Shown here: positions 9,385 to 29,571 of the stretch, piece by piece
Layout: the number at the start of each line of letters is the position of its first letter
Numbering within the stretch: position 1 is the stretch's first letter
Assembly: GCF_000007225.1 (NCBI RefSeq)
Contig: NC_003364.1
Location: 1,530,001-1,562,000 of the forward strand
Direction of reading: 5' to 3'
Origin: Pyrobaculum aerophilum str. IM2
GTDB taxonomy: Archaea > Thermoproteota > Thermoprotei > Thermoproteales > Thermoproteaceae
Length of the DNA stretch: 32,000 nucleotides
Program-made: the position numbers and the translations under genes
The notes under the pieces: model-generated
Database searches by the model: none
The model's input: the letters and a program-made list of their open reading frames with translations, nothing else
What the model was told of the DNA's origin: nothing

Positions 9385-9493
9385 CTTACGTTTTCTCGAA
9401 AAGTCGTTAAAAAGAAACACATTCCCTGAAAAATTTTCAAGGGAGAATTTTCACTTTTCGAATAGTTATAATTGGAAAACTTTCCTTCGGATC
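9385..9493. promoter_or_regulatory. Divergent promoter region between sir and the TauE/SafE gene
   Basis: A 109-bp AT-rich spacer. atagttataatt lies ~20 nt upstream of ATG 9494, and minus-strand ctttttaac lies ~21 nt upstream of ATG 9384. Confidence 0.4.
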
Positions 9494-11930: not shown

Positions 11931-13347
11931 TCAAAAAAATAAATTCTTCTCCCTTAAGGTATTGCCCTTGCCCGCACGCGCCGTAATGCCATACTGGCGC
12001 TGGAACGCCCAGAGAGTTGAACGGGAACACAAGGCCCTCAAGACGTTGTATGTGTAGGGGTGTATGTGTAAATACTGGGCGTGCATATTCCACTTAACCA
12101 CGCCGTCCCAGCCGCCCCCACTCCCACTCCCCTCTCCAGCCGTATTGCCAGCTTAGGCCTCTCTATATTATCCTTAGAGTAGTGAAACTCGTGGCCGATG
12201 ATCCTCGCCCCGACGGGGGCTATGGGAGTTTCGCCCACCACCTCCCCCCAGGCGTAGCCCTTGCCCACTGGCCTTTCGAGCATTACAGTGACGGCGTCTA
12301 AAGCCCCCACCATTTCGTACTCGCTCCTGTCTATTATTATAGAAGAAGTCATGTACATCAAGCCGCCGCATTCGGCGTACAGCCTCCCGCCCCCCTCTAT
12401 GTATTTCAACAATGCCCTTCTAAACGGCCTGTTCCTCTCCAGCCCCTCTGCCATTACCTCCGGAAACCCCCCGCCTACTACTACCACGTCTACAGGCGGA
12501 ACCTCTTGGTCTCTTAACGAGTCGAGAAATATTAAGTGCCCCAGAGAGGCCGCCTCTTCTAAAAGCTCGGGGTAGTAGAAGGTGAAGGCTCTGTCCATAA
12601 TTACGCCTATTTTACAGCCAAGGGGCTTGGGCGATTCGTCGGACAGATCTGCCTCCACCTCCCCGGCCCTTTTCGCTATAGACAATACGGCATCTAAGTC
12701 GAGGTGGGGCAAGACGTAATTCTCCAAAACCTCCACAATTCCGCTAGAATCAAGGCGCTCGTCAACAGGGACGAGGCCTAGGTGGCGGTAGGAAAAGGCC
12801 TCTGATATTTTCTTAGATTTAGGCACCACCCCCACCACCTCAACCCCCTCCTCTGGAATTGATTTAACAAGCTTCTCAGCCTGTCTGGGAGTTACATTTG
12901 TCAACACCACTCCCGCGATGTCCACCTGGGGGTCAAAGGCCCTCAGCCCCCTCACCACGGCCCTTAGAGTTCTGTTAACTCTCTCGCCGTTTAATACTAA
13001 AATCACAGGGGCTTTGAGAATTTTGGCCACCTGGGCAGTGGAGCCGGTTTCAGTAACGCCGTCTACCGAGTCGTACAAGCCCAAAACTCCCTCAATAATC
13101 GCAACGTCGGAGCCCGCGGCGTATTTAACAAACCTCTTCTTTACCCCCTCCACCCCCATTAACATAACGTCGAGATTTCTGCCGGGCCTTCCAGCGGCAA
13201 CTTTGTGGTAAGAGGGGTCGATGTAGTCAGGCCCGATTTTAAAAGGGGCTATTTTAAGCCCCCTTTTAGCCAGTCCGTAATCCCCAGGGATATAATAGTC
13301 TTGCCCGACATCCCCTTAGGCGCCGAGATTACCACGCGCGGGATCAC
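11931..13347 (-). pseudogene. CbiA/CobB-family a,c-diamide synthase (DsrN-like siroheme amidase candidate), disrupted by at least two frameshifts
   Basis: Three frames read in sequence. First: VIPRVVISAPKGMSGKTIISLG..LKGGLK* (13347-13249). Second: IAPFKIGPDYIDPSYH...GHEFHYS...LERGVGV. Third: GGGWDGVVKWNMHAQYLHIHP... (to TGA 11931-11933). The shifts coincide with the A4/G5 runs at 13252-13263 and the G5 run at 12115-12119. The 3' end is uncertain. Confidence 0.75.
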
Positions 13348-14485: not shown

Positions 14486-15193
14486 ATGCGGGTTGTTGTC
14501 ACAAGCCCCTTCGCGGGAGAGGCTTTTACAAGAGTGTTAAAAGGCGTGGAGGTGGCCGTGGCCCCGGTGTTAAAACTAATGCCTGTGAAAGTAGAAGGGG
14601 AGGCGGTTGCGAGCGCCGTGTCGAACAGCGACTTGGTGGTCTTCGTCTCCGGCAGGGCGGCTTATAGGCTCAGAGAAGAGGGCATACGCCTAGATCTCGC
14701 CGGCAAGATCGTGGCGACGGCTGAGGGGAGAAAGGGGGCTGTGATGGTGAAAAACGCCTTTGGAGTAGAGCCGCAGTTAGTGGCCGACAGCGCGGAGGAG
14801 CTGGCACGGTTGATTGAGAGTTGCCGCGTCGCCACTGTGTTCCACCACGGGGAGCGGGCTGAGGAGTTGATGAAAAGGCTGAGCTCTCTGTGCAGCCGGG
14901 CGTACGAGTTCTTCACCTACAGGGCAGTGCCTGACGACGAAGCGCTCCGCGCCCTACCCCCCGGCGAGGTCTACGTATTTTTCAGCGCCCTGGCGGCTGA
15001 GCTTGTGGCCGCGCGGAGGAGGGACGTGTTAGAGAGAGCCGTTATCATCGCGGCGGGCCCTGCGGTGAAAGCCGCGTTGGAAAAACACGGCTTAAATGCC
15101 GCAGTCCCGCCGAGCGGGCGCATCGGAGAAGTCGCTTTATTTGTCAAGCGCCTTGTTGAGGAACTCGGCAACAGCCTCGGCCAGATAGGCTAA
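14486..15193 (+). CDS. Uroporphyrinogen-III synthase-like (HemD family) protein
   Basis: Two-lobed HemD-like pattern: VVVTSP...DLVVFVSGRAA...IVATAEG...VYVFFSALAAE...IIAAGPAVKAAL. Confidence 0.55.
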   Translation: MRVVVTSPFAGEAFTRVLKGVEVAVAPVLKLMPVKVEGEAVASAVSNSDLVVFVSGRAAYRLREEGIRLDLAGKIVATAEGRKGAVMVKNAFGVEPQLVADSAEELARLIESCRVATVFHHGERAEELMKRLSSLCSRAYEFFTYRAVPDDEALRALPPGEVYVFFSALAAELVAARRRDVLERAVIIAAGPAVKAALEKHGLNAAVPPSGRIGEVALFVKRLVEELGNSLGQIG

Positions 15194-15958
15194 AAAGGGC
15201 TTCTCGGGGACTATAACCCTCGTGACGCCGTATTTCCTCACCTCTTGCTCAGTCACGGGGCCCACAACCGCTATAACTGACCTCCCCGAATTCGCCGTCT
15301 CCACCACTTCGCGCAAAATGCCGGCGCGCTCAACGGCTTTGAGAAAGGCCTCGGCCCCCAGGGCGCTGGTGAAAATAAGTATGTGATTCCCCTCTAAAAA
15401 CCTCCTCGCCGCCTCCAAGGCGTTTGCCTCGGGGGCCTCCTCCGTTGTGTAGACCTGGACGTATTTGACGTCAGCGGCGATTTTCCTCAACTCCTCCAGA
15501 AGCTCTGAGTCAACAGCGCCGTAGAACGACACCACCAGCCTCTTCCCCCTCAGCGCCTCTGCCGCTCTTACGAGCAACTCGTCGGAGGTCTCGCCGTAAT
15601 TGGGGCACTCAAGGTGGAAGTGCGTCTTGACGTTGCCAGAGGCCTTCATTCCCCTGCAGAGGAGCTCCCTCTGCGAGAGGAGCGTCCTCACTTCCTCAAG
15701 CCTCTGCGCCCTTTTGGCCAGCTCGGCGAGACCCCACGCCGATTGGCCGGTCATGAATAACACGGCTTGTGACCACGTCAAATGGCCTATGACAGTGCTG
15801 ATATCGCTACCGCTCTCCTCCACTTTAACCGTTGGTAGGTATACGGGCTCTCCCCCCGCCTTTATTATGAGCTTGGCCAACAGCTCGGCCTTGGAGGGCC
15901 TCCCCGACGTGATAATCACCGTCCACTTGCCCACGCCCTCTATATATTCTACCTTCAT
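15137..15958 (-). CDS. Uroporphyrinogen-III synthase-like (HemD family) protein, second paralogue
   Basis: HemD-like pattern: VIITSGRP...AVLFMTGQSA...LIFTSALGAEAF...IAVVGPVTEQEVRKYG. The 3' end overlaps the convergent HemD-like gene by 57 nt. Confidence 0.6.
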   Translation of the reverse strand: MKVEYIEGVGKWTVIITSGRPSKAELLAKLIIKAGGEPVYLPTVKVEESGSDISTVIGHLTWSQAVLFMTGQSAWGLAELAKRAQRLEEVRTLLSQRELLCRGMKASGNVKTHFHLECPNYGETSDELLVRAAEALRGKRLVVSFYGAVDSELLEELRKIAADVKYVQVYTTEEAPEANALEAARRFLEGNHILIFTSALGAEAFLKAVERAGILREVVETANSGRSVIAVVGPVTEQEVRKYGVTRVIVPEKPFLAYLAEAVAEFLNKALDK

Positions 15959-16017: not shown

Positions 16018-17262
16018 ATGGAAGTTCGTGTAAAAAGGCCCCTTACAGTAGATGAATATGCAAAAGAGGGAATGGAGATGTTAAAATACTATGAGTCCGG
16101 CCCCTGGCCTAGCCACGTGGCGGAGCTGAAGAAGAGCAAATACCCCATTGAGGCATACGCCGCGGGGCTTGCCGCCAGGAAGACCATGTGGGCGGCCGGG
16201 TCGGCGAAAATAAGATATGTATACACTGGGTTTATCGCCCGCAGGACTCGCGACGGGAAAATAGCCGAGCTCCACTTCCGCGTATGGCAACCGTCAGGAT
16301 ATCTCTACAGCACTGAGAAGCTGAGAAAACTAGTGGACTTCGCCGATAAATACGGCCTTGGGCTAATAGAACTGGCGGGACAACAGGGACAGATGATAAT
16401 ATCCGTGAGGCCCGAGGTGGCCGATGAGGCAGTGGATTATTTGAGAAACGTAGTTGGTACAGATATCGGCGCCACTGGGGACACCATTAGAGAGCTGGCC
16501 GCGTGCGTGGGGCCCGCCCTCTGCGAGTTCGCCCTGTACAACACCTTGGAGGCCAGGGACAAGTTCTTGACCCATCCCAAGATATACGAGTGGATGTCCA
16601 ACCAGCTGTTTCCCTTTAAGTTCAAGGCGAAGTTCTCCGGCTGTCCCTTCGACTGCACCAGGGCTGTTCATCGCGCTGATTTTGGTTTTATTGGCGTTTG
16701 GGAGGGCGCTCCTGAGGTGGATCAAGAGCTTTTGAGGAGGAAGATTGAGGCTGGGGAGGTGGACCCGGCCAAGCTGGCAGCTAATTGCCCAAGCGGGGCA
16801 ATTACATGGGACGGTAAGGAGTTGAAAATAGACGGCAGTAGGTGTAAAAAATCCATGCACTGCATAAGAGCGGCGTTCCCAGCAATAAAACCGGGGAAGA
16901 AGGTGAAAATAGCCGTAGTCGTCGGCGGGCATGTAAAGGGCAGATTCGGCGGCAAAATGGGCAAGCCGTTGGCAGTTGTTAACTCAGTGGAGGAGGCCAT
17001 GGACTGGGTGGTAAAGACTGTGGAGAGCTGGATGGAGTACATGGAAAAGGGCGTGGTGAAGCATAAAGACAGAATTGGCGACTTTATTATGAAGGTCGGG
17101 TTTAAGAAATACCTCACGGAAATCCTCGGCATAAATGAGGAGAGGAAGCCCACTCTACACCCGTCGTTGAGAGCAGGCGCGGTGCTAGACGACGAGGAGA
17201 GGACAATGTGGGCTAATTGGGCCGGCAAGATAGTAGAGGAGTACTTCGGGAAGAGGCCATGA
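16018..17262 (+). CDS. dsrA: Dissimilatory sulfite reductase alpha subunit, copy 2
   Basis: Same Cys motifs as copy 1. The N-terminal ~200 aa are strongly diverged from copy 1, and the C-terminal ~216 codons are identical to it. Confidence 0.9.
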   Translation: MEVRVKRPLTVDEYAKEGMEMLKYYESGPWPSHVAELKKSKYPIEAYAAGLAARKTMWAAGSAKIRYVYTGFIARRTRDGKIAELHFRVWQPSGYLYSTEKLRKLVDFADKYGLGLIELAGQQGQMIISVRPEVADEAVDYLRNVVGTDIGATGDTIRELAACVGPALCEFALYNTLEARDKFLTHPKIYEWMSNQLFPFKFKAKFSGCPFDCTRAVHRADFGFIGVWEGAPEVDQELLRRKIEAGEVDPAKLAANCPSGAITWDGKELKIDGSRCKKSMHCIRAAFPAIKPGKKVKIAVVVGGHVKGRFGGKMGKPLAVVNSVEEAMDWVVKTVESWMEYMEKGVVKHKDRIGDFIMKVGFKKYLTEILGINEERKPTLHPSLRAGAVLDDEERTMWANWAGKIVEEYFGKRP

Positions 17263-17626
17263 CCGCCGACCCCGTCGCGCAGAGGCTTCAGAAGAGGTTG
17301 CCAGTTCCTTACACTGAGTGGTTGCCCGAGTTAATAAGGCGCAATGTGGGCAAGTGGGTGGACAGGAAGTTCCACGGCTACGGCATTATTGAACCCATAT
17401 CCTCAACTGGGGATAGGGTGTTCACCGTAAAGGTGGGCACTCCGCCGAATTTCAGAATGAGCACGGAGACTTTGAGAAAATTTATAGATATTGCAGATAA
17501 GCTGGGCATCGGCGGTATAAAAATCACCCGCAACGGCAATTTGGAAATTCTCACCGACTCTCTAGACAAGGCGTTGAAGATAAAAGAAGAGGTGGAGAAA
17601 ATGGGCTTCCCAGTGGGAGGGTGGGG
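16611..17626. repeat. Right arm of the 1016-bp inverted repeat
   Basis: Reverse complement of 3598-4613. A further identical 32-nt patch at 17643-17674 follows a 16-nt divergent gap. Confidence 0.9.
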
Positions 17627-18374
17627 GCCTACTCTGTGGTCTATAAATTCGTGTACTGCATTTCTCACGTGTACCACGGCGGTTGTAGACGCGCCGAGTA
17701 TTACTAAAGTGCTGTACGACCACTTAAAGCCCTACTTCACCGGAGAGGTGAAACTGCCGGCTAAGTTGAGGATTAACGTGTCGGGATGCCCCAGCTCTTG
17801 CGGAGGCTTTACCTCTGATATAAATATCGTCGGCCACTACGGAGACGCGCCGACTTACGACCCAGAGCGCGTCAAGTTATGTCTGCCTAAGTCGGCTAAG
17901 GCGCTTGAGATGGGCCACGTGCCCGAGGTGGCTGAGGTCTGCCCCACCGGCGCAATTAAAGTATACGGCAAGCCTGACGGCACCGTAGGCTTAGACGTCA
18001 TTAGGAGCAAATGCATTGCCTGCGGCCGTTGCCGCGACGTCTGCGACTGGATTGATTTCGACGAGTCTAAAGCCGGCGTGGCTATTTTAGTAGGCGGAAA
18101 GGCCAGCAACACTGGCCGCGGCCCCATGCCCTCTATACAAGTAATACCGTGGGTGCCCGCCATACCGCCTGAATATAGAGAGATCGTGGCCGTTGTGAAG
18201 ATAATTATAGACGTCTGGAGGACAAACGCCAGAGAGGGCGAACGTATCGGCGACTGGATAGCCCGGATTGGAATGGAGCAGTTCTACAAGCTCTTAGACA
18301 TACCTGTGACTAAGTGGAACAAGCCTGTAACGCTGGCCGGGGAATTCGGGATAAGACAGTTCGGCCCTATTTAA
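17259..18374 (+). CDS. dsrB: Dissimilatory sulfite reductase beta subunit, copy 2
   Basis: ATGA overlap with dsrA. The first ~122 codons are identical to copy 1 and then diverge (GCPSSC, CIACGRCRDVC). Confidence 0.9.
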   Translation: MTADPVAQRLQKRLPVPYTEWLPELIRRNVGKWVDRKFHGYGIIEPISSTGDRVFTVKVGTPPNFRMSTETLRKFIDIADKLGIGGIKITRNGNLEILTDSLDKALKIKEEVEKMGFPVGGWGPTLWSINSCTAFLTCTTAVVDAPSITKVLYDHLKPYFTGEVKLPAKLRINVSGCPSSCGGFTSDINIVGHYGDAPTYDPERVKLCLPKSAKALEMGHVPEVAEVCPTGAIKVYGKPDGTVGLDVIRSKCIACGRCRDVCDWIDFDESKAGVAILVGGKASNTGRGPMPSIQVIPWVPAIPPEYREIVAVVKIIIDVWRTNAREGERIGDWIARIGMEQFYKLLDIPVTKWNKPVTLAGEFGIRQFGPI

Positions 18375-18375
18375 A

Positions 18376-18861
18376 GTGAGTATTTACTACATAATTGGAA
18401 ATCTTCTTTTACAACTCCGCTTCCGTTATGGAGTTGAAGAAGTTGACGACAGCGTTGAGCTTGTAAATTTAGTAAAGTCCCAGGAGGAGGGAGTTGAGAA
18501 GACGTATATCTACTCGCCCCCGGGGCGTCCGCGGCCCTATTTAATATCAGCCATGCTGTCCCCTCCATACGTGGCGCTGGCAGTGGCGGATTTAGACGAT
18601 GTGCGGCAGATACACGCCGATATCCCCCTTGAGGACGTTGAGGAGGCCACTACGGTGGTAGTGGACAACTACGCCCCGTTTATAATGCCCTTAAAAAAAG
18701 ACGATGGGGTTATCTACGGAGTGCTGGGGTTTAAGACTGTGGTGGAGTCCGATGTTTTAACCGGCGGGTTCTTTGAAACATTGCTTGAAGACTTCGAGTT
18801 AAACAGCGATAAATACTTTAGTTCAATTGTTAATAAACTCACTGAATTGAAACAAAAATAA
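18376..18861 (+). CDS. Hypothetical protein downstream of dsrB copy 2 (start uncertain)
   Basis: 161-aa ORF starting with GTG 2 nt after the dsrB stop. It is acidic and does not look like DsrD. I recognised no family. Confidence 0.4.
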   Translation: MSIYYIIGNLLLQLRFRYGVEEVDDSVELVNLVKSQEEGVEKTYIYSPPGRPRPYLISAMLSPPYVALAVADLDDVRQIHADIPLEDVEEATTVVVDNYAPFIMPLKKDDGVIYGVLGFKTVVESDVLTGGFFETLLEDFELNSDKYFSSIVNKLTELKQK

Positions 18862-19000: not shown

Positions 19001-19696
19001 ATGTTGTATTGGCCTAAACTTGACGATTCCGCCAATAACATTGTTGCATATGTAGTGAGCAACGGCCCTGTCACTATGTACCGCGTCGCCAGGGATTTAA
19101 ATCTCCATTTTTCCCATGCGTATAGAAAGTCGAAGAAGCTGGAGGACTCCGGTTTGTTGACCTCTATCGGAGGCCCCAGGGCGAGCCTTTACGACGCCAC
19201 CGTTCGAGGCCTGTTGTATGCCTATGTGGCAAAGCTGGCGAGCCGCGAGATTATATTAAAGAAACTGAGGGTGGTGCTGGGGCTACACCTCTTCTCTCTG
19301 GAAGAGGTGGAGAGCTTTATAAAATTCTTCTTAACAGTGGCGAATAAAGAGGCGCCCGTGGGCAGTCTTGCCACAATGGTCAGTTATATTTTGGACAAAT
19401 GCGGCTCTGATTATACAAGGTGTATGGCCAACCTCGACGAAAGAGACCGGGTTCTCGCCAGCAGGGTCATGGCCTATGGCATAATAAAACTTATTCACAA
19501 CTTCTTCGGCGACTCTCTTGTAGTAGCCGACGAGGGCTATTACGCCATTGTGAAATTAAGTACTAGGCAGCTGCTGGCAGTGCAGTGCAAGCTGTGCGGG
19601 AGGGAGAAATACTGTAGCCTGGATCCGTGTCCCTCGTTGAAAGACATAATTGAGGTAAAGTTGAGAGACGCCTCTAGGCTAGTGCCAGCCTTTTAA
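19001..19696 (+). CDS. Hypothetical protein with an N-terminal winged-helix-like domain (putative regulator)
   Basis: The N-terminus NNIVAYVVSNGPVTMYRVARDLNLHFSHAYRKSKKLEDSGLL resembles an archaeal wHTH. The C-terminus has a CKLCG...C..C cysteine cluster. Confidence 0.5.
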   Translation: MLYWPKLDDSANNIVAYVVSNGPVTMYRVARDLNLHFSHAYRKSKKLEDSGLLTSIGGPRASLYDATVRGLLYAYVAKLASREIILKKLRVVLGLHLFSLEEVESFIKFFLTVANKEAPVGSLATMVSYILDKCGSDYTRCMANLDERDRVLASRVMAYGIIKLIHNFFGDSLVVADEGYYAIVKLSTRQLLAVQCKLCGREKYCSLDPCPSLKDIIEVKLRDASRLVPAF

Positions 19697-20096
19697 TCCA
19701 CTTTTCTAAAATCTCCGCGCTTTCTATAAAATTGACAAGTGGGATGTTGGTTTTACAAACGCACCTCACGGCGCCTCCGTCGTTTTCCAATAGGTACACG
19801 CCGTCTCCGCCGTTTGCCAGCGCTAAGGCGTATTCCCCATCTGCGTAGTACTCTATATAAGGCGGGTGTAGCCGGGGCGGCGTTGCCTTCTCAGTGCAGT
19901 CGGGGAAGCTTGTGGCCTCTAAGGCCCACGCCAGTTCCTCATCTCTTATACAACGGCCTCCTGCGCTTAAGACGTGGCCGAACAGGTATAAGCCGTCCTC
20001 TAGCACAATCCCCTTGTTGGGGACTCTACACGGCTCGCCGTTTTTAATAATAAATTTCTTTAATTCTGAAAACAGCTCTGGCAAGTAAATACTCAC
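19674..20096 (-). CDS. Hypothetical protein, weakly SMI1/KNR4 (SUKH)-like, coupled to tusA
   Basis: The GTG start overlaps the tusA TGA (GTGA). The pattern LPELFSELKKF...NG...GGDGVYLLENDGG...FIESAEILEKWI is reminiscent of SUKH domains. Confidence 0.4.
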   Translation of the reverse strand: MSIYLPELFSELKKFIIKNGEPCRVPNKGIVLEDGLYLFGHVLSAGGRCIRDEELAWALEATSFPDCTEKATPPRLHPPYIEYYADGEYALALANGGDGVYLLENDGGAVRCVCKTNIPLVNFIESAEILEKWIKRLALA

Positions 20097-20320
20097 TTCA
20101 ATCTCTTAACAACTATTTTTAACGTTCCGTCGGGGAGCTTCTCGCTGGAAATCACCTCATGCCCCATTCTCTTAGCCCAGGCCTTGATGTCTGGATCCGC
20201 CGCAGGGTCTGTTGCCAGGACTTCTAAAACATCGCCGATTTCAATCTGGGTTATTGCCTTGGCGGTTTCCATAACTGGCACGGGGCAGAACTTCCCCCTG
20301 ACGTCTAGGACTTTTGGCAT
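20093..20320 (-). CDS. tusA: TusA/SirA-family sulfurtransferase
   Basis: 75 aa. DVRGKFCPVPVMETAKA carries the CPxP active-site motif. Confidence 0.85.
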   Translation of the reverse strand: MPKVLDVRGKFCPVPVMETAKAITQIEIGDVLEVLATDPAADPDIKAWAKRMGHEVISSEKLPDGTLKIVVKRLK

Positions 20321-20444
20321 GGACTCTCCACAGCTCCCCTTTATAAATTTAGTTACTAATTCGCGCGGGAATATCTCTCCTCTTTTATAAGTGCAAAATT
20401 AACACATTTACATAATGTTTATAAAGTAATGTGGTACTGTAGCT

Positions 20445-20696
20445 GTGAGCGAGGCGGTGTTAGACGAGGTCAGGCGAGTGTACGTGCTGGACTTAAGGGG
20501 GTATGTGTGTCCATATCCTCAACTGGCCACTGTGAGGGCTATGCGCAAATTGCCCAAGGGAAGCGTCCTCGAGGTTATTACCGATAATCCCCCTAGTTGT
20601 GAAAACGTGCCGGCCGTAGCTAGGAGAGAGGGGGGCCTTGTGGAGGGGGTTTATGAAGTAGAGCGCGGAGTTTGGAAAATTGTAATTAGGGTATGA
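20445..20696 (+). CDS. TusA-like protein (second copy)
   Basis: 83 aa. [17 protein letters not shown] carries the CPxP motif. GTG start. The stop overlaps the start of the next gene (ATGA). Confidence 0.8.
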
Positions 20697-22399
20697 ACAG
20701 GCTGGAGAGGTTTAAAGAGAGGGTTAAGCTCTATAGAGAGGCTGGGATTGCCTTGGAGTCCCTCTCTCTGGGCTGTTCGGTGAAGGTGGATTTGTACAAC
20801 GTCTTGTACCCGGCCCTCCAGTTGCTCCGGGAGGAGATGTACAAGCTGAATTTAGTAATCGCCCCCAGGGAAGACGCGGCGATAATGCCTGGGGCTTCCG
20901 CCGCGCTGAGGCGGTATTTCCTAGACGTGGAGAACCCGCGGCTCGACCCGGCGGAAGTGGAGAAGCTGTCGCCCACAGTGGCAATAGTGCTGGCCCAAGT
21001 GTACATGGGCAAGGCCGCGGCGCCCGACCTCTTCGCCAAGTACGTCGCCGGGCTCTACAAGGCGCTTGGGTCCAGTAGACACAAAGTGTGGCTGGGGAAG
21101 GGCCACAGCATTATCAGCACTAAGAAGGGGGCTGAGTTCTTCATGGTGGACTTCCTAAAGGCGGAGGGGCAGGAGGGGTATATAGTGGCTAATAACGACA
21201 CAATACAAGTTATTGACCCCTCTGAGGATTTCGACTCGCCGCTACAAATCGCCGTCGCTGTAAACAACGCTCTTAACGACTTGTTCACAAAAGGGGCGTG
21301 GAAGGATATTCACATAGCCCCCGTATACGACGCGCCGCCGCCTTTTAGAGGGCCTTTAGAGGCGAGGGTGAAGAGCTACGCCTCCAGCCTGGGGAAACTT
21401 GTTGAGGCCCCGCAACCTGAAATGGGTTACCTCCTCCTAGGCGCCACTGCATATGCGAGGCTCGACCGGGAGCCGCCCCTTTTTTACGACAAAATAAGAG
21501 AGGGCTTCGTGGTCGTGGTCACGAGGCCCTTCGGCGAATTGGCCTACTTCACCACCTACGTGGCAGTTCACACCGACGAGACTTTGATGAAAAAATTCGA
21601 GGAGGAAGTGATGCCAATAGAACAGTTTGAGGCCGAGAAGCGCAGGGTGTTAGAAATTATGGCAACGCCGAATTTAGAAGCGGCCAAGGCCATTTACCAA
21701 TACCTCCCCGACTTGGGAGAGCGCTTTGATCCCGAGGCTCACATCGCCGCGACTATTGACGTCTCAGGCCCGGGGATATTTGTATTTAAGGAGGTGGCGG
21801 AAAGGGCAGGCGTCGACATTAGGCTTTTTGACGTCCCGTTGATGTCAAGCGCAGTTTCTAAATTCGCCGCAGATAATTACATAATGCCCGACGCCACCGC
21901 TGGCACTAACGGGGCCATTGCCATATTTGCCAGCAGAAAAGTGGCCGAGGAGCTGGTGGAAAAACTCTCAAAAGCACCCCACGCAAAACCGACAGTAATA
22001 GGCGTAGTTGAGGGGAAGGGGGAGGGCAGATTGATAGTGCCGGAGTGGGCCCTTCAGTACATCTCCAGCAAGAAGCTGAGGGAGAAGCTGGGGGCTGCCT
22101 CCGTCCTCGGGGGGCTTGCCAGAGTGGTCGGGAGGCCTATACGCGCGGTGGCGTATGTAGAAGGGGCTGTGCAAGGCGTCGGCTTCCGCCCAATGGCCCG
22201 GGCGAGGGCCAAGGCCCTTGGCTTGTTGGGATACGCCAAGAATCTCCCAGACGGCAGGGTGGAGGTGGTAGTCGAGGGAGACGAGGAGAGAGTGCGGAAA
22301 TACGTAGAGGAGTTGTGTAAGGGGTTTGAGAACTGCAGAGTGGGCCAAGTGATATACGCGGAGGCAAGGGGCGAGTTCAGCGACTTCTCAATTTTATGA
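20693..22399 (+). CDS. SelD-like (PurM/AIR-synthase-fold) protein fused to a C-terminal acylphosphatase domain
   Basis: N-terminal GCSVK has the same Cys-x-x-Lys spacing as Sel[42 protein letters not shown] and TAGTNGAI follow in SelD order. The last ~90 aa carry both acylphosphatase signatures ([12 protein letters not shown]; [17 protein letters not shown]). Confidence 0.7.
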
Positions 22400-22764
22400 A
22401 AATAGGGGTAATAATCGCCTCCGACGATCCCATGAGGCTGTATGTAGCCGCCACGTATATAGCCACTGAGGTGGCCAGGGGGAATGAGGTTGGCGTTTTC
22501 GTCACCGGCAGGGGCGTGGTGCCGTTCTCCAAGGGAGATCTCTCTGACTATCCAGAGGCTGTCAAAATGAGAGAAATGAAGGTGACTTGGCTGGAGATAT
22601 TCAAAGCGGCGAAGCCGCTGGGGGTAAAGGTGGCTGTCTGCGAAACTGCGGCGAAGATATACGGCCTAACTGCCCAGGACTTCCGCCATTTGGAAATTGT
22701 TGACGAAATTTCCTCTATGTATTCATTCCTAGAAGAATATGGGGAAAAAATTGTTACGTTTTAA
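22396..22764 (+). CDS. DsrE/DsrF-like family protein (COG2044-type), second copy
   Basis: 122 aa with [11 protein letters not shown] and the [12 protein letters not shown] Cys motif. ATGA overlap with the SelD-like gene. Confidence 0.7.
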
Positions 22765-22836: not shown

Positions 22837-23193
22837 TTAGAATTTAAATTTTTCGAATAAAGAGGGGCTCACTAACTTGGCGAGGTAATCGCATAAGATG
22901 TCGGCGCATTTGACGCACATCTCGCCTTTGGGATCTGTTAAGCGTTTTTCAAGACAGCGCGCGCACCGCATTACCTCTTCGGGGGGATTTGGCGACAGCT
23001 TTTTCAAAAGGGCCGGTAGCGCCTCTACGCTCGGCGTGGGGCTGTGAGGGGGCCTGCCCAGTAGGCCCAGTATTAAAGAGCGCACGGCCACAAAGGCGTT
23101 GTAACAAGCCCACGGGTGGTCCCCCAGCTCCAGCCCTCTGAGCGCCTCTTTCATGTGTCTATAATGTCTCTCGAGCCACTTGGGGTGAATCAC
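22837..23193 (-). CDS. Hypothetical protein: helical N-terminus (weakly HEPN-like) plus a CxxC...CxxC pair
   Basis: 118 aa with a GTG start. RCARCLEKRLTDPKGEMCVKC looks like a zinc-ribbon-type Cys pattern. Confidence 0.35.
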   Translation of the reverse strand: MIHPKWLERHYRHMKEALRGLELGDHPWACYNAFVAVRSLILGLLGRPPHSPTPSVEALPALLKKLSPNPPEEVMRCARCLEKRLTDPKGEMCVKCADILCDYLAKLVSPSLFEKFKF

Positions 23194-23760: not shown

Positions 23761-25128
23761 ATGCCCATGCCAGCTCCTCTGGAGCCCCACGGCGGTCGTT
23801 TAGTATATAACGTAATTGAGGACAGAGATAAGGCGGCGGCTATGATACAAGGGCTGCCGTCTATTGAAATTGAGCCGACGTTAGGCCCCGACGGCTCGCC
23901 TATCCGCAACCCGTATAGAGAGATCATGTCTATTGCATACGGCTTCTTCAGCCCGGTGGAGGGCTTTATGACGAGAAATGAAGTGGAGTCGATTCTCAAA
24001 GAGAGGAGGCTTTTAAACGGCTGGCTCTTCCCCTTCCCCTTGATATACGACGTCGACGAGGAGAAGATTAAGGGCATTAAAGAGGGAGACTCAGTCCTTC
24101 TAAAGCTCAAGGGTAAGCCTCTCGCCGTGTTGAACGTTGAGGAAATATGGAGGCTTCCAGACCGCAAAGAGCTGGCCGATGCGGTCTTCGGCACGCCGGA
24201 GAGAAATAAGGAGGTTGTGAAGAAGAGATTTGACGAGAAACACCCAGGGTGGCTGATCTACCGATCGATGAGGCCGATGGCCCTCGCCGGAAAAATTACT
24301 GTTGTAAATCCGCCGAGGTTTAAAGAGCCTTACTCGCGGTTTTGGATGCCTCCGCGCGTCTCGAGGGAGTACGTGGAGAAAAAGGGGTGGCGGATAGTAG
24401 TTGCCCACCAGACTAGAAACGTCCCCCACATAGGCCACGAGATGCTTATGAAAAGGGCAATGTTCGTGGCGGGAGGCGAGAGGCCTGGAGACGCCGTTTT
24501 AGTCAACGCTATAATTGGCGCCAAGCGGCCTGGGGACTACGTGGATGAGGCGATTTTAGAAGGCCACGAGGCGTTGAACAAAGCCGGGTATTTCCACCCA
24601 GACCGCCACGTGGTCACCATGACGCTATGGGATATGCGCTACGGCAACCCTCTTGAGTCTCTTCTACACGGCATAATTAGGCAGAACATGGGGGCTACTC
24701 ACCACATGTTCGGCCGCGACCACGCCGCGACTGGCGACTATTACGACCCCTACGCCACGCAGTACTTATGGACCAGAGGGCTCCCCAGCTACGGCTTAAA
24801 CGAGCCTCCCCACATGACTGACAAGGGGCTGAGGATAAAGCCGGTTAACCTCGGCGAGTTCGCCTATTGTCCCAAATGCGGCGAGTATACATACCTCGGC
24901 ATGTCCTACGAGGGGTATAAAGAAGTGGCGCTGTGTGGACACACGCCGGAGCGCATCTCCGGCTCCCTCCTCCGCGGCATTATAATAGAGGGCTTGAGGC
25001 CGCCTAAAGTGGTGATGAGGCCTGAGGTATACGACGTAATTGTGAAGTGGTGGAGGGTATACGGCTATCCCTACGTGACCGATAAATACCTAAGAATAAA
25101 GGAACAAGAGCTAGAGGTGGAGCTATGA
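23761..25128 (+). CDS. sat: Sulfate adenylyltransferase (ATP sulfurylase)
   Basis: The motif HQTRNVPHIGHEMLMKRA and the downstream GRDHAA are ATP-sulfurylase signatures. There is a C-terminal Cys pattern CPKCGEY...CGH. Confidence 0.9.
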   Translation: MPMPAPLEPHGGRLVYNVIEDRDKAAAMIQGLPSIEIEPTLGPDGSPIRNPYREIMSIAYGFFSPVEGFMTRNEVESILKERRLLNGWLFPFPLIYDVDEEKIKGIKEGDSVLLKLKGKPLAVLNVEEIWRLPDRKELADAVFGTPERNKEVVKKRFDEKHPGWLIYRSMRPMALAGKITVVNPPRFKEPYSRFWMPPRVSREYVEKKGWRIVVAHQTRNVPHIGHEMLMKRAMFVAGGERPGDAVLVNAIIGAKRPGDYVDEAILEGHEALNKAGYFHPDRHVVTMTLWDMRYGNPLESLLHGIIRQNMGATHHMFGRDHAATGDYYDPYATQYLWTRGLPSYGLNEPPHMTDKGLRIKPVNLGEFAYCPKCGEYTYLGMSYEGYKEVALCGHTPERISGSLLRGIIIEGLRPPKVVMRPEVYDVIVKWWRVYGYPYVTDKYLRIKEQELEVEL

Positions 25129-25469
25129 CATATAAAATAGGGCTTTTAATAGACGAGAAGAGATACGAGGCTATTAAAAACACCCCGCTGGCCCAGAGTT
25201 TAAAGTCTATGTTCGGCGGCGAGATAAAGATGTTAGAGGTTGAGGTTGATGAAGAGACCGCCAAGAGAATACTCGCGGAATTCCCGTCGGCCAGAGTAGA
25301 CGCGAGGGGCTTTCTCGAGGATCTGCCAGTGGCGTTTAAGAGGGCGCTCTTCGAGGCCATAGCCCAGGAGGGGAATGCGGACAAATCGGTGTTCGAAAAA
25401 GTGTTTCAAAAAATCGACGTTATTAAAGAGGCGGCGAAGAAGGAGAAAGAATACGTGCCCCCGCCGTAG
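25125..25469 (+). CDS. Hypothetical 114-aa protein translationally coupled to sat
   Basis: ATGA overlap with the sat stop. Charged, helical-looking protein with a lysine/glutamate-rich tail. No family recognised. Confidence 0.5.
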   Translation: MTYKIGLLIDEKRYEAIKNTPLAQSLKSMFGGEIKMLEVEVDEETAKRILAEFPSARVDARGFLEDLPVAFKRALFEAIAQEGNADKSVFEKVFQKIDVIKEAAKKEKEYVPPP

Positions 25470-25799: not shown

Positions 25800-26558
25800 A
25801 TGGACCCAGTCACAATAATTTTATACGGCGTATTTCCCTATATTTCACTACTGCTTTTTGCGGGGGGCGTGTTGTATAGACTCGGCAGCTGGCTGTCCGC
25901 CAGCGGCCTCACGGGGCTTTACTCAGTGGCGGTTAAGGGCTATACCTGGAGCTTTGGCTCCAGGCTGGGGGAGGTTTTAAAACGGGTTTTCCTCCTATAC
26001 ACCTTGACGATGTCCGACAAAATGCTTTTAGTGGGCTCGTTCCTATTCCACTGGGGCATTTGGATAGCGTTGCTGGGCCACGCCTCTATGATTATCCCGC
26101 CGGAGCAATTCGGCATGCCTAAAGAGACGCATAAGGCCATTGCGCTATACGCCGGAGGGACAGCTGGCGTCATGTCGCTAATAGGCTTAGTGATACTCCT
26201 CATAAGAAGGATTGTGAGGAGCGACGTGAGGAGGCTGAGCTTTCTAGACGACTGGTTCGCCTTAATCCTCCTGCTCCTCCTCGTGGCCGTGGGGAATTAC
26301 CAGACGCTTGTGCTACGCCCTGACTACATGGAGACTGTAGCCCCGTGGGTCCAGTCCGTGTTGGCGGGGAGCCCCAGGCTTGAGCTAGTGGAACACTGGG
26401 ACTTCGCCACTAAGCTACACGTCTTCCTGGCGCTGTTGTTTATCGCGTACGTCCCGTTCGGTAAGTTAATACACCCCTTCTCCTTCTTGGCAATGCCGAC
26501 GTTGTGGAAAAGCCCCACGAAACTATACGGCTACATATTGGCGAAAATAAGAGGGTAA
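25800..26558 (+). CDS. dsrM: DsrM (NarI/HdrE-like membrane di-heme b subunit)
   Basis: Five to six hydrophobic helices. The conserved His-bearing segments FHWGIWIALLGH and HVFLALLFIAYVPFGKLIHPF are typical of NarI-like cytochrome b. Confidence 0.85.
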   Translation: MDPVTIILYGVFPYISLLLFAGGVLYRLGSWLSASGLTGLYSVAVKGYTWSFGSRLGEVLKRVFLLYTLTMSDKMLLVGSFLFHWGIWIALLGHASMIIPPEQFGMPKETHKAIALYAGGTAGVMSLIGLVILLIRRIVRSDVRRLSFLDDWFALILLLLLVAVGNYQTLVLRPDYMETVAPWVQSVLAGSPRLELVEHWDFATKLHVFLALLFIAYVPFGKLIHPFSFLAMPTLWKSPTKLYGYILAKIRG

Positions 26559-26609
26559 TTAACAACTTTTTTGAAATAAGATTTATAGAAGACCCACGGC
26601 TATTCACAC

Positions 26610-28330
26610 ATGACTGTAGCGGAGGCACAACACGCACACGAGGCGGTTTCCGCCCCGTCTTTGTTCAAAGCCGCCTACAACGAAAGACACCTATCCGGTA
26701 CCGCTCTTATTCAAAACCGCCGACGGCACACGGCGCAGTTACTTTCATAAGTCAGGAAATCATGTCAGGAAAGCGTACTTCCTCTTGACAAATGCCAATA
26801 TCAGGACGACTGGCAAATTGCTGAGCAAGGCGGCTCTAGCCTTGAACAAACCCCCACAGTTAATCAATGTTAAATACCAGTTGAATTAGAGACATGGAGT
26901 CCCCCTACGCCCCCCACCCCGCCCCGGGCAGGGCGGGGCGGCCCTGGCGCGCGGGCCGAAGGCGGGGAGAGCCCGCCGAGGGGGTTAGCGACACTCCGGG
27001 CGTTGCCCGCCCCGGAAGCCTCTGGCGATCCGGGGCCCCGTGCCCCCCCGGGACGCCCGGAGAGCAGAAAGGGGGCATGTGTCTAGACAACTGCCCCACC
27101 TACGTGAGGACTTAGGATATTTTCAACTCGCCGGTGGGCAGGGCGGAGTTGTTAAGGGCTGTGTTAAAAGCCGACTCGCCCAGCGGAAAAATCTTCGGAA
27201 AATTAGTCGGGGCGGCGAAACTCACTGAGGAGCACTTAGAGAAAATATATACCTACTACTACCAATGCCTGGAGTGTAGGAAGTGCGCATACGCCTGTCC
27301 CTTCGGCATTGACCAAGCCGATATAACCCGGCTGGTTAGGGATGTGATGTATGAGGCAGGTATAATTTCGAAATACATCGCGACGGTAATAGACGCAGTG
27401 GAGAGGACTGGCACTAACCTCGGCATGAAGCCTCTGGCGGTAGTCAAGTCTATTACATTCGCCGCGGGGGAGATAAAGGAGGAGAAAAAAGTGGAAGTGG
27501 AGTATTACATTTACAGAGACGATCAGGGGAAGATGTTAAAATATAAAGGCGATCAGCTAGTGGGCGAGGTGACTAAGGAATCAGGGGACTGGCCCGAGGC
27601 CTTGTTATTACCTCCTTCCGCCGACTTCTTTACAAATATAGAGACGTTAAAGGGGTATATGCTCTTCCTCCACCTAATGGGAATTAAATTCGCCTTCTCC
27701 ACTGAAATGGCCGAGCTGGCAAACTTCGGCTTGTTCGCAAGCGAGAGGCACATGAAGTTCATCGGCCAGAAGGCGGTGAACGCCGCCTTAAGGCTTGGGG
27801 TTAAGTTCGTAATTGCGGGGGAGTGCGGACACGGATGGAGGGCGTTTAAAAACTACACAGGCCCGGAGCTGGAGAAACACGGCATTAAGACAATGCACGT
27901 ATTCCACCTCGTAATAGACGCTATTAAAAACGGCAAATTGAAGCTAAACCCTGAGGCGAATGGAGATATAGTGTACACATTCCAAGACTCTTGTAACTAC
28001 GCCAGAGGCGGCGATTTGACTGAGGAGCCCCGGTTTATAATTAAACACGTGGTGAAGAAATTCGTCGAGTCTCCCAACAACCGGGAGAAGACTTGGTGTT
28101 GCGGCGGCGGGGGAGGCCTGTTGACTGACGGGCTTTTGCCGTAGAGAATTCAATACGCCAAGAACTGGTACGAAGACGCCTTGAAGGCAGGCGCCAACCA
28201 CGTGGTGAGGGCTTGCGCCATATGCAAGGCGCAGCTAAGCCACACTATTCCGCACCTCAACAAGGAGTACGGCAAAAGTATTACATACAGCGGGTTAATG
28301 GATTTAGTCTACAAGGCCACAGTGGTGTAA
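26610..28330 (+). pseudogene. dsrK: DsrK (HdrD-like CCG-domain Fe-S protein), disrupted. The 5' third is scrambled, and there are in-frame TAGs at 27113-27115 and 28142-28144.
   Basis: The body reads ...GMCLDNCPTYVRT*DIFNSPVGRAELL...YQCLECRKCAYACPFG...TWCCGGGGGLLTDGLLP*RIQYAKNWYEDALKAGANHVVRACAICKAQL... in a single frame, ending at TAA 28328-28330. A DsrK-like N-terminal segment (KPPTTKDTYPVPLLFK) lies in a different frame at ~26665-26715. The start is uncertain. Confidence 0.8.
26898..27075 (+). other. Extremely GC-rich structured element embedded in the dsrK 5' region (possible ncRNA, intron or insertion)
   Basis: By hand count, 134 of 160 nt are G or C in 26901-27060, against ~45% in the preceding 60 nt. 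Nested helices: 26901-06/27070-75, 26917-24/26931-38, 26939-44/26953-58, 26961-66/26972-77, 26994-27002/27054-62 and 27009-15/27030-36. Confidence 0.5.
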
Positions 28331-28428
28331 TAGCTGGCAATAAATTCGAATTCTATTCGAAATTTATTTCGCAGATATTCCTATTTTGCCAGTTAATAAT
28401 ACATTTTAACATAAGTATCGACGATTCT

Positions 28429-29571
28429 ATGAAATCGGTAGTAATAATAGGTGGGGGAGTTGGGGGCTTGTTCACCGCCAATAAATTGGCGTCTAAATTA
28501 TCGGCAGAAATTAGAAGAGGCGAGGTGTCAGTAACTGTAGTGGAGCCTCAAGACAGACAAGTGTACCAGCCGGGCTTTCTATACGTGCCGTTTAAAGAAT
28601 TAACGCCTGATGTAATGTTCAAGCCTGTGTCTAAACTGGTGTCGCCGTTAGTAAAAGTGGAGAGAGAGCCCGCGGCTAAAATTGACCTGTCGGCGAAGAA
28701 AATAGTTTTGCAAAGCGGTAAGGAGCTGAAATATGACTACTTAATCGTGGCGACTGGGGCTGTGGTGAAGACGGGGAGCTACCCCGGGTTTGGAGAGGCG
28801 TGGCACACCTTATGGACTTATGAAGGCGCTAAGAGACTGAGGGAGGCGTTGAGGAGGTTTAACGGCGGCACAATCGTAGTCTCTGTGACGTCTACGCCGT
28901 ATAAATGCCCCGTCGCTCCGTACGAGTTCCTCGGACTCTTGAACGACTATTTAATGGCCACCGGGCTCAGGGCGAAGACAAAGGTTATTTTCACCACAGT
29001 GGCGCCGCACCTCCACGCCCAGCCGCAAGTCAATAAATTCCTAGAGGAGATCATGAGGATGTGGGGCTTTGATTACAAGACGAAATTCCAAGTAAACGCA
29101 ATAGAGCCCGGCAAAATCTCCGGCCCGGAGGAGATTAAGGCAGATTTAATTATGGCAGTGCCGCCTCACGGAGGCTCCGAGGTTGTGACTAAGTCCGGGA
29201 TAGGAGACCAAGCTGGGTGGGTGCCAGTGGATAGACACACGCTTCAGATTCAAGCCCAGGGCGCCACTGGGGCGGAATACGCCATAGGCGACGCCACTAA
29301 CCTTCCAGTTCCTAAGGCGGGTTCCGTGGCTCACTTCCAGAGCGAGATTGTGTCGTCGAGAATAGCAGAGGAGATACAATTGGGATACTCCGACACTGAA
29401 TACGACGGCCGCGTTATATGTTTTATACTCACAGGCTTTGAAGAGGCAACTGTGGTCTCGTGGAATTACGAAAACCCGGCGAAATACCCGCCGCCTCCCA
29501 GCCGCTTCTTCAACCGCTTGAAAGACATGACTAATTACTCTATATGGTCAGTGATGAGGTGCGGGCTATGA
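28429..29571 (+). CDS. FAD-dependent pyridine-nucleotide-disulfide oxidoreductase, SQR/NDH-2 family
   Basis: N-terminal VVIIGGGVGGLFTA dinucleotide fold, then IVATGA, YKCPVAPYEF and AIGDATN. I placed the start at ATG 28429. The ORF-track extension from 28213 lies over the out-of-frame dsrK 3' end and the spacer that follows it. Confidence 0.8.
   Translation: MKSVVIIGGGVGGLFTANKLASKLSAEIRRGEVSVTVVEPQDRQVYQPGFLYVPFKELTPDVMFKPVSKLVSPLVKVEREPAAKIDLSAKKIVLQSGKELKYDYLIVATGAVVKTGSYPGFGEAWHTLWTYEGAKRLREALRRFNGGTIVVSVTSTPYKCPVAPYEFLGLLNDYLMATGLRAKTKVIFTTVAPHLHAQPQVNKFLEEIMRMWGFDYKTKFQVNAIEPGKISGPEEIKADLIMAVPPHGGSEVVTKSGIGDQAGWVPVDRHTLQIQAQGATGAEYAIGDATNLPVPKAGSVAHFQSEIVSSRIAEEIQLGYSDTEYDGRVICFILTGFEEATVVSWNYENPAKYPPPPSRFFNRLKDMTNYSIWSVMRCGL

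Follow-up and report, generated by a model that had tools for sequence, protein, structure and literature searches.

Selenophosphate synthetase (SelD, or SPS2) combines a PurM fold with a flexible N-terminal loop, (Sec/Cys)-x-x-Lys, where Sec stands for selenocysteine, and with Asp and Asn residues that act as nucleotide and metal ligands. In Escherichia coli SelD, the metal-ATP ligands are four Asp and one Asn (D51, D68, N87, D91 and D227). Genuine SelD clusters with YedE and YedF (PMC5322559) and is also found fused to an NADH-dehydrogenase-like domain (PMC4561486). A 'SelD-like' family has been recognised in Sulfolobales and Thermoproteales (Li, Jiang, Ni, Liu & Zhang 2014, BMC Genomics 15:908; PMC4210487), and here we analyse one of its members, a 568-amino-acid (aa) protein that joins a SelD-like module to an acylphosphatase. 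The gene lies in an operon with genes for TusA-family and DsrE-family sulfur carriers, within a 32,000-nucleotide stretch of Pyrobaculum aerophilum str. IM2 (contig NC_003364.1, positions 1,530,001 to 1,562,000; hereafter the window). The cluster is the P. aerophilum member of an archaeal SelD-like sulfur module already known since 2014, and nothing essential distinguishes its protein from the family of Li et al. or from the corresponding NCBIfam family, NF038049.

Li et al. noted that the family conserves Cys-x-x-Lys together with the Asp/Asn ligands and that every Thermoproteales member is fused to an acylphosphatase. They also described the neighbouring SirA-like (TusA) and COG2210 'Prx-like' (DsrE-type) genes and a co-occurrence with AprAB, and they put forward two models, both with a thiophosphate compound as the product; the family was stated to be absent from Desulfurococcales (PMC4210487). 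Reviews from 2022 and May 2026 still treat its function as speculation, and our literature search found no 'thiophosphate synthase/synthetase' or 'sulfide water dikinase'. A preliminary description of the locus, made from the sequence alone, had put it forward as an uncharacterised candidate system for sulfur activation, with the caveat that the family might already be listed. This caveat was well placed, as both NF038049 and the 2014 paper attest. We found no biochemical characterisation, and to that extent the claim stands; the 2014 paper, on the other hand, had already presented the family with its fusion and its neighbours, together with the idea of a thiophosphate product. The reading is partly supported and was a reasonable rediscovery of a published prediction. 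What is new with respect to 2014 is the wider distribution, which includes Desulfurococcales, the standalone adjacent acylphosphatase outside Thermoproteales, the set of YedE-like, YedF-like and Nterm_to_SelD-like partners, and a displaced GKGHS motif. The value of the system is that of a well-defined biochemistry target, not of a discovery of the family, the fusion or the hypothesis.

Other described systems share parts of this design. For YeeE/YeeD, experiments have demonstrated both the import of thiosulfate and sulfur intermediates bound to cysteine, and the YeeD-type TusA takes sulfur from thiosulfate delivered by YeeE (PMC11073785). The DsrE3A/DsrE2B/TusA relay of Sulfolobales (Metallosphaera cuprina) contains, like the operon studied here, a TusA and a small one-cysteine DsrE-family protein within a sulfur cluster; unlike the operon, the relay transfers thiosulfonate derived from tetrathionate, has a link to the sHdr complex and, as described, includes no SelD-like enzyme. 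Its DsrE2B reacted with none of the sulfur compounds tested. HypF and HypE likewise pair an acylphosphatase with an ATP-dependent PurM-fold enzyme, and this known pair acts on a group bound to a protein cysteine. In the protein described here, by contrast, the reactive cysteine is N-terminal, as in SelD, and the gene context is one of sulfur, not hydrogenase, genes.

The SelD-like protein and its acylphosphatase

The operon and its divergent neighbour are laid out as follows:

20093..20320, minus strand: TusA-family sulfur carrier, 75 aa, divergent from the main operon (Pfam TusA 7.8e-24; Cys12 in CPVP)
20321..20444, no strand: divergent intergenic region, 124 bp (sequence read directly)
~20341-20350 and 20418-20427: TATA-like boxes TTTATAAA (sequence read)
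20445..20696, plus strand: YedF-type TusA, 83 aa, operon gene 1 (Pfam TusA 2.7e-21)
20693-22399, plus strand: open reading frame (ORF) of the 568-aa SelD-like/acylphosphatase fusion (ORF list)
20693..22093, plus strand: SelD-like module with predicted PurM fold, residues 1-467 (NF038049, 678.9 bits)
20774..20785, plus strand: segment with C28 to K31 of the flexible loop (aligns on C17-G-C-K20 of E. coli SelD)
22094..22150, plus strand: inter-module linker, residues 468-486, disordered in the model (predicted local distance difference test, pLDDT, <50 at 470-480; columns unconserved)
22151..22399, plus strand: acylphosphatase domain, residues 487-568 (Pfam PF00708 6.5e-23)
22396..22764, plus strand: DsrE-family carrier, 122 aa, last operon gene (Pfam DsrE 27.9 bits)

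The four genes lie exactly where the preliminary description had placed them in the ORF list, and the chaining of the last three by ATGA overlaps, like the 124-bp divergent gap, can be read directly in the DNA. One overlap joins the stop of the plus-strand TusA to the start of the fusion at 20693 ('...GGTATGAAC...') and the other joins the stop of the fusion to the start of the DsrE-like gene at 22396 ('...TTTTATGAAAATA...'). TATA-like 'TTTATAA' boxes lie on both sides of the 124-bp spacer, near both start codons, and may be the promoters of the two transcription units.

The 568-aa protein is a SelD-like member of the PurM superfamily, and not SelD itself. Residues 5-467 match NF038049 (SelD_rel_HyperS, 'SelD-related putative sulfur metabolism protein') with 678.9 bits against a cut-off of 250; for residues 1-470 the score is 679.8 bits, with profile positions 1-464/465 covered. 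The best database match of the whole protein is a 99% identical P. aerophilum protein that bears the NF038049 name. SelD is the sole other NCBIfam family matched by the N-terminal 470 residues, through model PRK14105, with 25.8 bits against a cut-off of 291 and over residues 268-439 only. In Pfam, no AIRS domain was detected in the 568-aa protein and AIRS_C appears weakly (E 0.033, 14.8 against a gathering threshold of 23.1). The kinship with PurM and SelD, to which Pfam lends no threshold support, is thus drawn from the NCBIfam match, a profile search and a structure comparison. When the single sequence was run against the PDB with phmmer, only acylphosphatases were found and no SelD; the family profile, in turn, finds human SPS1 first (1.8e-6), followed by HypE and PurM.

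The structural comparison points the same way. An AlphaFold2 model built on 31 homologues reached a mean pLDDT of 90 and a predicted template modelling (TM) score of 0.78, low confidence being confined to residues 470-480, in the linker, and to residues 26-28, in the Cys loop, which is flexible in the model as it is in SelD. A Foldseek search of the PDB placed SPS1, Leishmania SPS and the Aquifex and E. coli SelD on top (2.6e-16 to ~1e-12) and HypE, ThiL and PurM structures next (1e-12 to 1e-10). All these matches have a probability of 1.00, with TM scores normalised to the target of 0.57-0.70 over ~300-330 columns. The module is thereby predicted to have a two-domain PurM-type fold.

Within this fold, the flexible loop G27-C28-S-V-K31 falls on G16-C17-G-C-K20 of E. 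coli SelD in a local alignment that is suggestive, not decisive, and R59-E-D61-A-A falls on R49-D-D51-A-A. With hhalign, N192/D196 pair with N87/D91 and D356 with D227; run with the family against the single E. coli SelD sequence, it aligns from N192 onward only. C28, K31, D61, N192, D196 and D356 are invariant in 30-31 diverse homologues, and further motifs of the module are NNDT (167-170), D356-x-SGPG and TxGTNG (402-407). The chief departure from SelD is an insertion after the first strand: 108 residues separate D61 from D169, compared with the 17 from D51 to D68 in the E. coli enzyme, or ~90 extra residues. It is modelled by AlphaFold2 as additional strands and helices and contains an invariant GKGHSI (residues 135-140, nt 21096-21113). 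The possibility that the insertion is an internal duplication of the segment that follows it was rejected, as it gave no significant signal (E 0.056). Together with the coupling to an acylphosphatase and the constant use of Cys in place of Sec, the insertion sets the family apart from SelD.

As to the acylphosphatase domain, PF00708 matches residues 487-567 with 6.5e-23 (81.3 bits against a gathering threshold of 22.5), the phosphate-binding loop G491-A-V-Q-G-V-G-F-R499 (GxVQGVGFR) and the catalytic Asn517 are present, and the best PDB match of the domain is the Sulfolobus solfataricus acylphosphatase (1y9o/2bjd, 4.3e-16). The main features picked out in the preliminary description are therefore real: the SelD/PurM kinship of the N-terminal part, with SPS1 and SelD ranking ahead of HypE, ThiL and PurM, the GCSVK Cys-x-x-Lys, which is invariant across the family, the insertion of about 100 aa after the first motifs, and the complete C-terminal acylphosphatase with both signatures (Arg499 and Asn517). 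As to the domain models it had named, acylphosphatase is confirmed and NF038049 comes in addition, while AIRS and AIRS_C fall short.

Distribution of the family and its partners

To place the locus in context, we scanned one genome per species with the peptide patterns [TA]GCAVKVDL and NNDTI[QH][IV][IV]D. Of the 98 loci found in this way, 80 were kept, and 77 of these hold a full-length gene. ORFs were called and clustered per locus and recurrent clusters annotated; gene calling was crude, the taxonomy of metagenome-assembled genomes (MAGs) is that given by their depositors and, because many contigs are incomplete, all counts of partners below are lower bounds. The family is small, as only 203 of 1.84 billion cluster representatives match it at E <= 1e-3. 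It ranges widely: Sulfolobales, Thermoproteales, Desulfurococcales, Acidilobaceae, Pyrodictiaceae, Ignisphaera, Aeropyrum and Thermofilaceae, and further Thaumarchaeota/Nitrososphaeria, Hydrothermarchaeales, Methomethylicia-type lineages (Methanomethylicia), other MAGs labelled as euryarchaeal and one Acidobacteriota MAG. Both motifs used for fishing are conserved in 76/76 homologues, a result that is partly circular because the loci were selected by those patterns; the same caution applies to the loop motif G-C-x-[VI]-K-[VIL]-D, present in all 76 full-length homologues, because one of the patterns contained it. The loop is kept as CGCxxK in divergent representatives, and the catalytic position is Cys, never Sec, in every sequence seen.

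TusA is found within 4 kb of the SelD-like gene in 57/77 loci and directly adjacent to it in 51, most often with a 4-nt overlap, and this overlapping-codon coupling occurs in many orders. We conclude that TusA and the SelD-like enzyme form the conserved core of the system. DsrE behaves differently: it lies within 4 kb in 13/77 loci and is adjacent, immediately downstream, in only two, the window and P. oguniense, so that we rejected it as a core partner and conclude that it is a lineage-specific addition. The conserved neighbourhood envisaged in the preliminary description thus holds for the fusion in Thermoproteales and for the adjacent TusA, but not for DsrE. Among the other recurrent partners are a YeeE/YedE-family membrane protein (PF04143 Sulf_transp; 24/77 loci) and a two-domain rhodanese (21/77). 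A ThiF/MoeB-type E1 (MoeB/ThiF/UbaA) occurs in 4/77 loci (L050, L059, L067 and L071) and MoeA directly downstream in 3/77 (L009, L016 and L018). Unrelated genes aside, extra ORFs flanking the gene in Pyrobaculum and Thermoproteus loci had no informative Pfam matches.

The acylphosphatase accompanies the SelD-like gene in two forms. It is fused in 18/77 loci, whereas in 24 more it is a separate gene of 90-110 aa directly downstream. Measured from the SelD-like stop, 23 of these 24 standalone genes start at -23 to +27 nt (most commonly -4). A separate acylphosphatase gene that overlaps the SelD-like stop codon is the usual arrangement outside Thermoproteales. Arg499 and Asn517 are kept in 43/43 fused or adjacent copies. 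The fusion is present in 18 of the 19 Thermoproteales loci, and the exception looks like a frameshifted assembly. From this we conclude that the acylphosphatase is an old, catalytically constrained partner, and no oddity of Thermoproteales. In the exceptional locus (L036, Thermocladium modestius, 8001-9635), two ORFs, of 397 aa and 116 aa, take the place of the single gene, and the second has doubled residues ('GGEVQGVGGLRP' as against 'GEVQGVGLRP' in the close relative L014); such doubling is typical of indel sequencing errors, and the unfused case is therefore probably an assembly artefact.

The carrier proteins of the window are clear family members. The two TusA proteins score 83.8 and 75.6 bits with PF01206 (gathering threshold 28.6), and the translations show the CPxP sulfur-binding Cys in both, as C12-P-V-P and C22-P-Y-P. 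The one upstream of the enzyme has, besides Cys22 in CPYP, a second conserved Cys52 in NPPSCENVP. Its best NCBIfam match is YedF PRK11018 (58.7 bits against a cut-off of 79; 29.9 against 110 for TIGR03527), and its best PDB match is E. coli YedF (1je3, 7.8e-12). In other loci, the same-strand TusA immediately upstream is YedF-type with CPxP in 27/27 cases, 25 of them with two Cys, and the motifs CPYP and NPxSCENVP recur across loci. Genes in this position thus encode one coherent, YedF-like kind of TusA. In the long form of YedF, TusA is followed by a C-terminal DsrE-like domain with CGxC; here, TusA and the DsrE-like protein are separate genes, and the latter has a single Cys (VCETA) instead of CGxC. 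This 122-aa protein scores 27.9 bits with Pfam DsrE (PF02635; gathering threshold 22.7), so that the TusA and DsrE assignments of the preliminary description both hold above threshold. Its sole PDB match, 2qs7 (5.7e-5), in which Cys82 aligns with the Cys of the structure, is SSO1126, a DsrE2B (PMC4175335). On the strength of this one weak match we tentatively regard it as a DsrE2B-like protein of the COG2210 type.

Taken together, the partners recall those of selenium activation. SelD/SPS2 and the SelD-like family share a YedE/YeeE-type membrane protein, TusA/YedF and an NADH-dehydrogenase-like flavoprotein as genomic partners. The YeeE-family neighbour is closest to YedE/FdhT, ahead of the thiosulfate transporter TsuA, with 119-162 against the YedE cut-off of 350, and a flavoprotein encoded near the SelD-like gene matches type III sulfide:quinone reductase (SQR) and TIGR03169 'Nterm_to_SelD', a domain that many bacteria have fused to genuine SelD. 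This flavoprotein recurs with DUF1641 in L001 (881-2026), L038, L048 and L030, and the Sulfolobales arrangement is TusA-flavoprotein-DsrE-DUF1641. The YedE, YedF and Nterm_to_SelD scores are all below threshold, and the partners are therefore paralogues and not selenium proteins. Thus, the four-part architecture of selenium activation exists in a sulfur-context version, which strengthens the case for SelD-type chemistry on TusA-carried sulfur. As in the YeeE/YeeD (TsuA/TsuB) and YedE/YedF pairs, a Sulf_transp protein stands beside a CPxP TusA in 24 loci; unlike in those pairs, it is followed here by the SelD-like enzyme and the acylphosphatase, and the 24 pairs reach threshold neither with the TsuA/TsuB nor with the YedE/YedF models. 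The P. aerophilum window itself contains no PF04143-type transporter.

Some loci stand apart. The family was unexpected in lineages of Thaumarchaeota that are not hyperthermophiles, where six marine or groundwater MAGs (L070, L072, L073, L074, L077 and L079) have a fixed arrangement: TusA, YeeE-like, two YncE-like beta-propellers, SelD-like, two TusA, rhodanese, a small ORF and a UbiA-like prenyltransferase. No acylphosphatase was found in this arrangement. A 407-kb contig of the MAG labelled Acidobacteriota (L032) carries the SelD-like gene with rhodanese, TusA and acylphosphatase nearby, which points either to a horizontal transfer into bacteria or to mis-binning of the contig. A divergent clade of ~430-490 aa (P0171, P0175, P0188 and P0219) keeps CGCxGK, KGH(S/T/A), N-x-D, NxxND, (T/S)D(I/V)SGxG and TxETNG, and the single contig examined for it (L083) has no adjoining sulfur genes. 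A second divergent group of ~500 aa (P0155 and P0160), with 'PCGCSIK', is without a TusA neighbour (L082). As P0155 and P0175 have no sulfur neighbours, they give no help on function. One apparent relative, the 1864-aa surface-repeat protein P0237, was rejected: it yields 11 matches to profile positions 122-192, and its repeats look like prealbumin/SpaA-type units, so that the match is probably a compositional artefact.

A proposed reaction and its alternatives

To account for these observations we propose, with about even odds in our own estimation, that the SelD-like enzyme uses ATP to phosphorylate sulfane sulfur delivered by TusA, with a phospho(thio)anhydride as the substrate that the acylphosphatase hydrolyses. 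What the data show is homology, a predicted fold, conserved residues, tightly coupled operon genes and a setting among sulfur genes; to this the scheme adds, by inference, the use of ATP, the identity of the sulfur substrate and of the product, the direction in which sulfur travels and what the acylphosphatase acts on. It would run as follows. The YedF-type TusA would first take up sulfane sulfur on its CPxP cysteine; probable sources in other lineages are thiosulfate, brought in by the YedE/YeeE-like transporter, and release by rhodanese. Cys28, in the flexible loop near the N-terminus of the PurM-fold enzyme, would receive the sulfur next, and Mg-ATP would be held by Lys31 and the conserved Asp/Asn set, as in selenophosphate synthetase. 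Attack of the bound sulfur on the gamma-phosphate would yield AMP, phosphate and either thiophosphate or a perthiophosphate bound to the cysteine. The fused acylphosphatase would hydrolyse a phospho(thio)anhydride-type intermediate or by-product, either making the reaction irreversible or freeing the sulfur onto an acceptor, and in P. aerophilum the DsrE2B-like protein may serve as acceptor or as donor.

If this were true, an enzyme that produces an inorganic sulfur donor activated by ATP, be it thiophosphate or a phosphorylated persulfide, would be known for the first time, as the sulfur counterpart of selenophosphate synthetase. The model could also account for the way in which many hyperthermophilic archaea direct sulfur between thiosulfate or persulfide carriers and sulfur-oxidising, sulfur-reducing or biosynthetic enzymes, and acylphosphatases would at last have an assigned physiological role. 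Moreover, the whole selenium-activation module (transporter, TusA-like carrier, dikinase and flavoprotein) would have a sulfur paralogue, which bears on the question of which of the two arose first.

Several points weigh against this proposal. Its weakest part is the acylphosphatase: thiophosphate is no acyl phosphate, so that in the simplest model the domain is left without an obvious substrate. We know of no thiophosphate-consuming enzyme, and none is evident in the surveyed neighbourhoods. Our literature search also found no biochemical or genetic evidence for any family member. The alignment of the Cys loop to that of SelD scores 35 against 21 +/- 4.2 for shuffles (maximum 42.5), or ~3 SD (standard deviations), with an hhalign E of 0.017; the Cys and Lys, as first suggested, align with C17 and K20 of the SelD catalytic loop, though with modest statistics. 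In vitro, an archaeal TusA, that of Metallosphaera, bound no sulfane sulfur from polysulfide (PMC4175335). Finally, the top structural match, SPS1, is according to PMC3218224 a SelD paralogue that does not make selenophosphate.

The active site adds two further difficulties. The GGHSI of SelD is missing at its canonical position, and GKGHS is found in the insertion instead, so the active site may differ from that of SelD. Sequence alignment pairs the GKGHS hairpin with the SelD GGHS hairpin weakly (E 0.04), and the hairpin with GKGHSI may have moved or undergone duplication. Alignment likewise leaves two candidates, D153 and D169, for the residue that matches SelD D68; D169 is favoured by its spacing to N192/D196 and by the retention of N-x-D, but not of D153, in divergent relatives. 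The sub-alignments of the N-terminus and the insertion to SelD are weak and partly contradictory (E 0.02-0.1), and for this reason we claim no residue-level mapping for the second Asp or for GKGHS.

The acylphosphatase would be easier to understand if the system performed acyl-type chemistry on a carrier protein, without releasing free thiophosphate, an alternative that we hold to be unlikely, though less so than the others. In one version, similar to HypE and the N-domain of HypF, the PurM module and the acylphosphatase would act on a group bound to a carrier cysteine; in the other, thiophosphate would attack an acyl-adenylated MoaD/ThiS/SAMP carrier and the acylphosphatase would cleave the acyl-thiophosphate to a thiocarboxylate, a sulfur route to cofactors and tRNA that needs no cysteine desulfurase. 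Such chemistry provides a natural substrate for a domain whose catalytic residues are strictly kept. HypE structures are also the next-best Foldseek matches after SelD, a standalone acylphosphatase from the surveyed loci matches the HypF model TIGR00143, and 'Model 1' of Li et al. likewise invoked an acyl-thiophosphate. But Pfam and NCBIfam reveal no YrdC or Kae1-like domains, as found in HypF, in the 568-aa protein or its neighbours, and the PurM-like module ends without the C-terminal cysteine of HypE, its only invariant Cys being the N-terminal one, within the Cys-x-x-Lys loop that defines SelD. The E1 genes of four loci and the MoeA genes of three fit a carrier of this kind, yet they are rare. 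Similarly, the occurrence of the family in organisms of very different energy metabolism would suit a housekeeping role, whereas the dissimilatory sulfur-gene context in the window and in Sulfolobales does not, and its absence from the free-living P. islandicum and P. neutrophilum (PMC4210487) argues against an essential biosynthetic role. The bolder idea that thiophosphate is a real archaeal metabolite made from TusA-delivered sulfur, with the acylphosphatase resolving acyl-thiophosphate adducts into thiocarboxylates, strikes us as a long shot. If true, it would open a desulfurase-free sulfur route into molybdopterin, thiamine and tRNA and provide the first physiological substrate for archaeal acylphosphatases such as Sso AcP.

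Roles without sulfur activation are each less likely than the proposed phosphorylation of TusA-borne sulfur. Since PurM-superfamily members phosphorylate very different substrates, the enzyme could be an ATP-dependent kinase or ligase acting on a non-sulfur substrate, with the acylphosphatase removing an acyl- or imino-phosphate product and TusA and DsrE as regulatory or incidental neighbours. The ThiL, HypE and PurM matches at 1e-12 to 1e-10, the active site remodelled by the 90-aa insertion and displaced GKGHS, and the divergent P0155 and P0175 with no adjoining sulfur genes would all agree with this; we consider it quite improbable in view of the invariant cysteine exactly at the selenium-binding position of SelD, the overlapping-codon coupling to TusA in many orders and the repeated co-occurrence of YeeE, rhodanese and DsrE. 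A selenium function, with the protein as a divergent selenophosphate synthetase of a hidden archaeal selenium trait, is very unlikely. The nearest curated relatives of the module and its partners are indeed SelD, YedE/FdhT, YedF and Nterm_to_SelD, the Cys-x-x-Lys loop is kept, and Li et al. did not fully exclude this role (PMC4210487), but the scores are far under the cut-offs (SelD 25.8/291, YedE 119-162/350, YedF 58.7/79), no sequence has Sec and the genes are located in sulfur islands. Moreover, the host orders, like all sequenced Crenarchaeota, lack SelA/SelB, YbbB and YqeBC (PMC4210487), and none of SelA/SelB, YbbB or YqeB/YqeC is among the Pfam and NCBIfam annotations of the window. Least probable of all, to the point of being far-fetched, is a non-catalytic scaffold or regulator that would merely bind nucleotide and sulfur carriers, as in metazoan SPS1: SPS1 is the best structural match and has been solved in a DNA-binding complex (PDB 9hjt description), but it lost the catalytic Cys/Sec, whereas the SelD-like family keeps its Cys, Lys and Asp/Asn ligands invariant and its attached acylphosphatase retains the catalytic residues.

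The sulfur island of the window

The operon sits in a sulfur island of the window, whose other genes are:

1527-1862, minus strand: DsrC
1981-2343: strong DsrE, 85 bits
2817-5224 (2817-4007/3962-5224), minus strand: DsrAB-like pair 1
5352-6059: siroheme-related methylase
6367-7170: PAPS (3'-phosphoadenosine 5'-phosphosulfate) reductase
7780-9420: assimilatory-type sulfite reductase
9494-10360: TauE
10714-11409: rhodanese
12038-13165: DsrN-like amidase
14486-15958: HemD homologues
16018-18374 (16018-17262/17217-18374), plus strand: DsrAB-like pair 2
19674..20096, minus strand: unknown-family ORF, 140 aa, start overlapping the stop of the minus-strand TusA by 4 nt
23761-25469: ATP sulfurylase, with DUF6955 overlapping its stop
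25800-28144: DsrM-like and DsrK-like proteins
28213-30023 (flavoprotein 28213-29571): type III SQR-like flavoprotein and DUF1641

The 140-aa ORF has no Pfam or NCBIfam match. It is possibly co-transcribed with the minus-strand TusA, and its place in the system is uncertain. It adjoins a gene for a TrmB/Csa3-like helix-turn-helix protein (19001-19696, plus strand; weak matches), and the P. oguniense locus (L001) contains neither gene. The next feature downstream of the operon is a minus-strand HEPN-domain ORF (22837-23193) whose 22.0 bits equal the Pfam gathering threshold of 22.

At the edge of the window, two same-strand ORFs, 2-424 and 431-919, adjoin each other. Only the second matches a family, the C-terminus of a fumarate reductase/AprA-type flavoprotein (9.8e-10), and the two may be an AprA tail split by a frameshift or a stop. 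A 161-aa ORF without a Pfam or NCBIfam match (18376-18861) begins 2 nt downstream of dsrB; as P. oguniense (L001) has an ORF of equal length in the same place, it is probably a real dsr-linked gene. Lastly, the DUF6955 gene (25125-25469, 107 bits) overlaps the ATP sulfurylase stop by 4 nt, which implies that this uncharacterised protein is translationally coupled to Sat.

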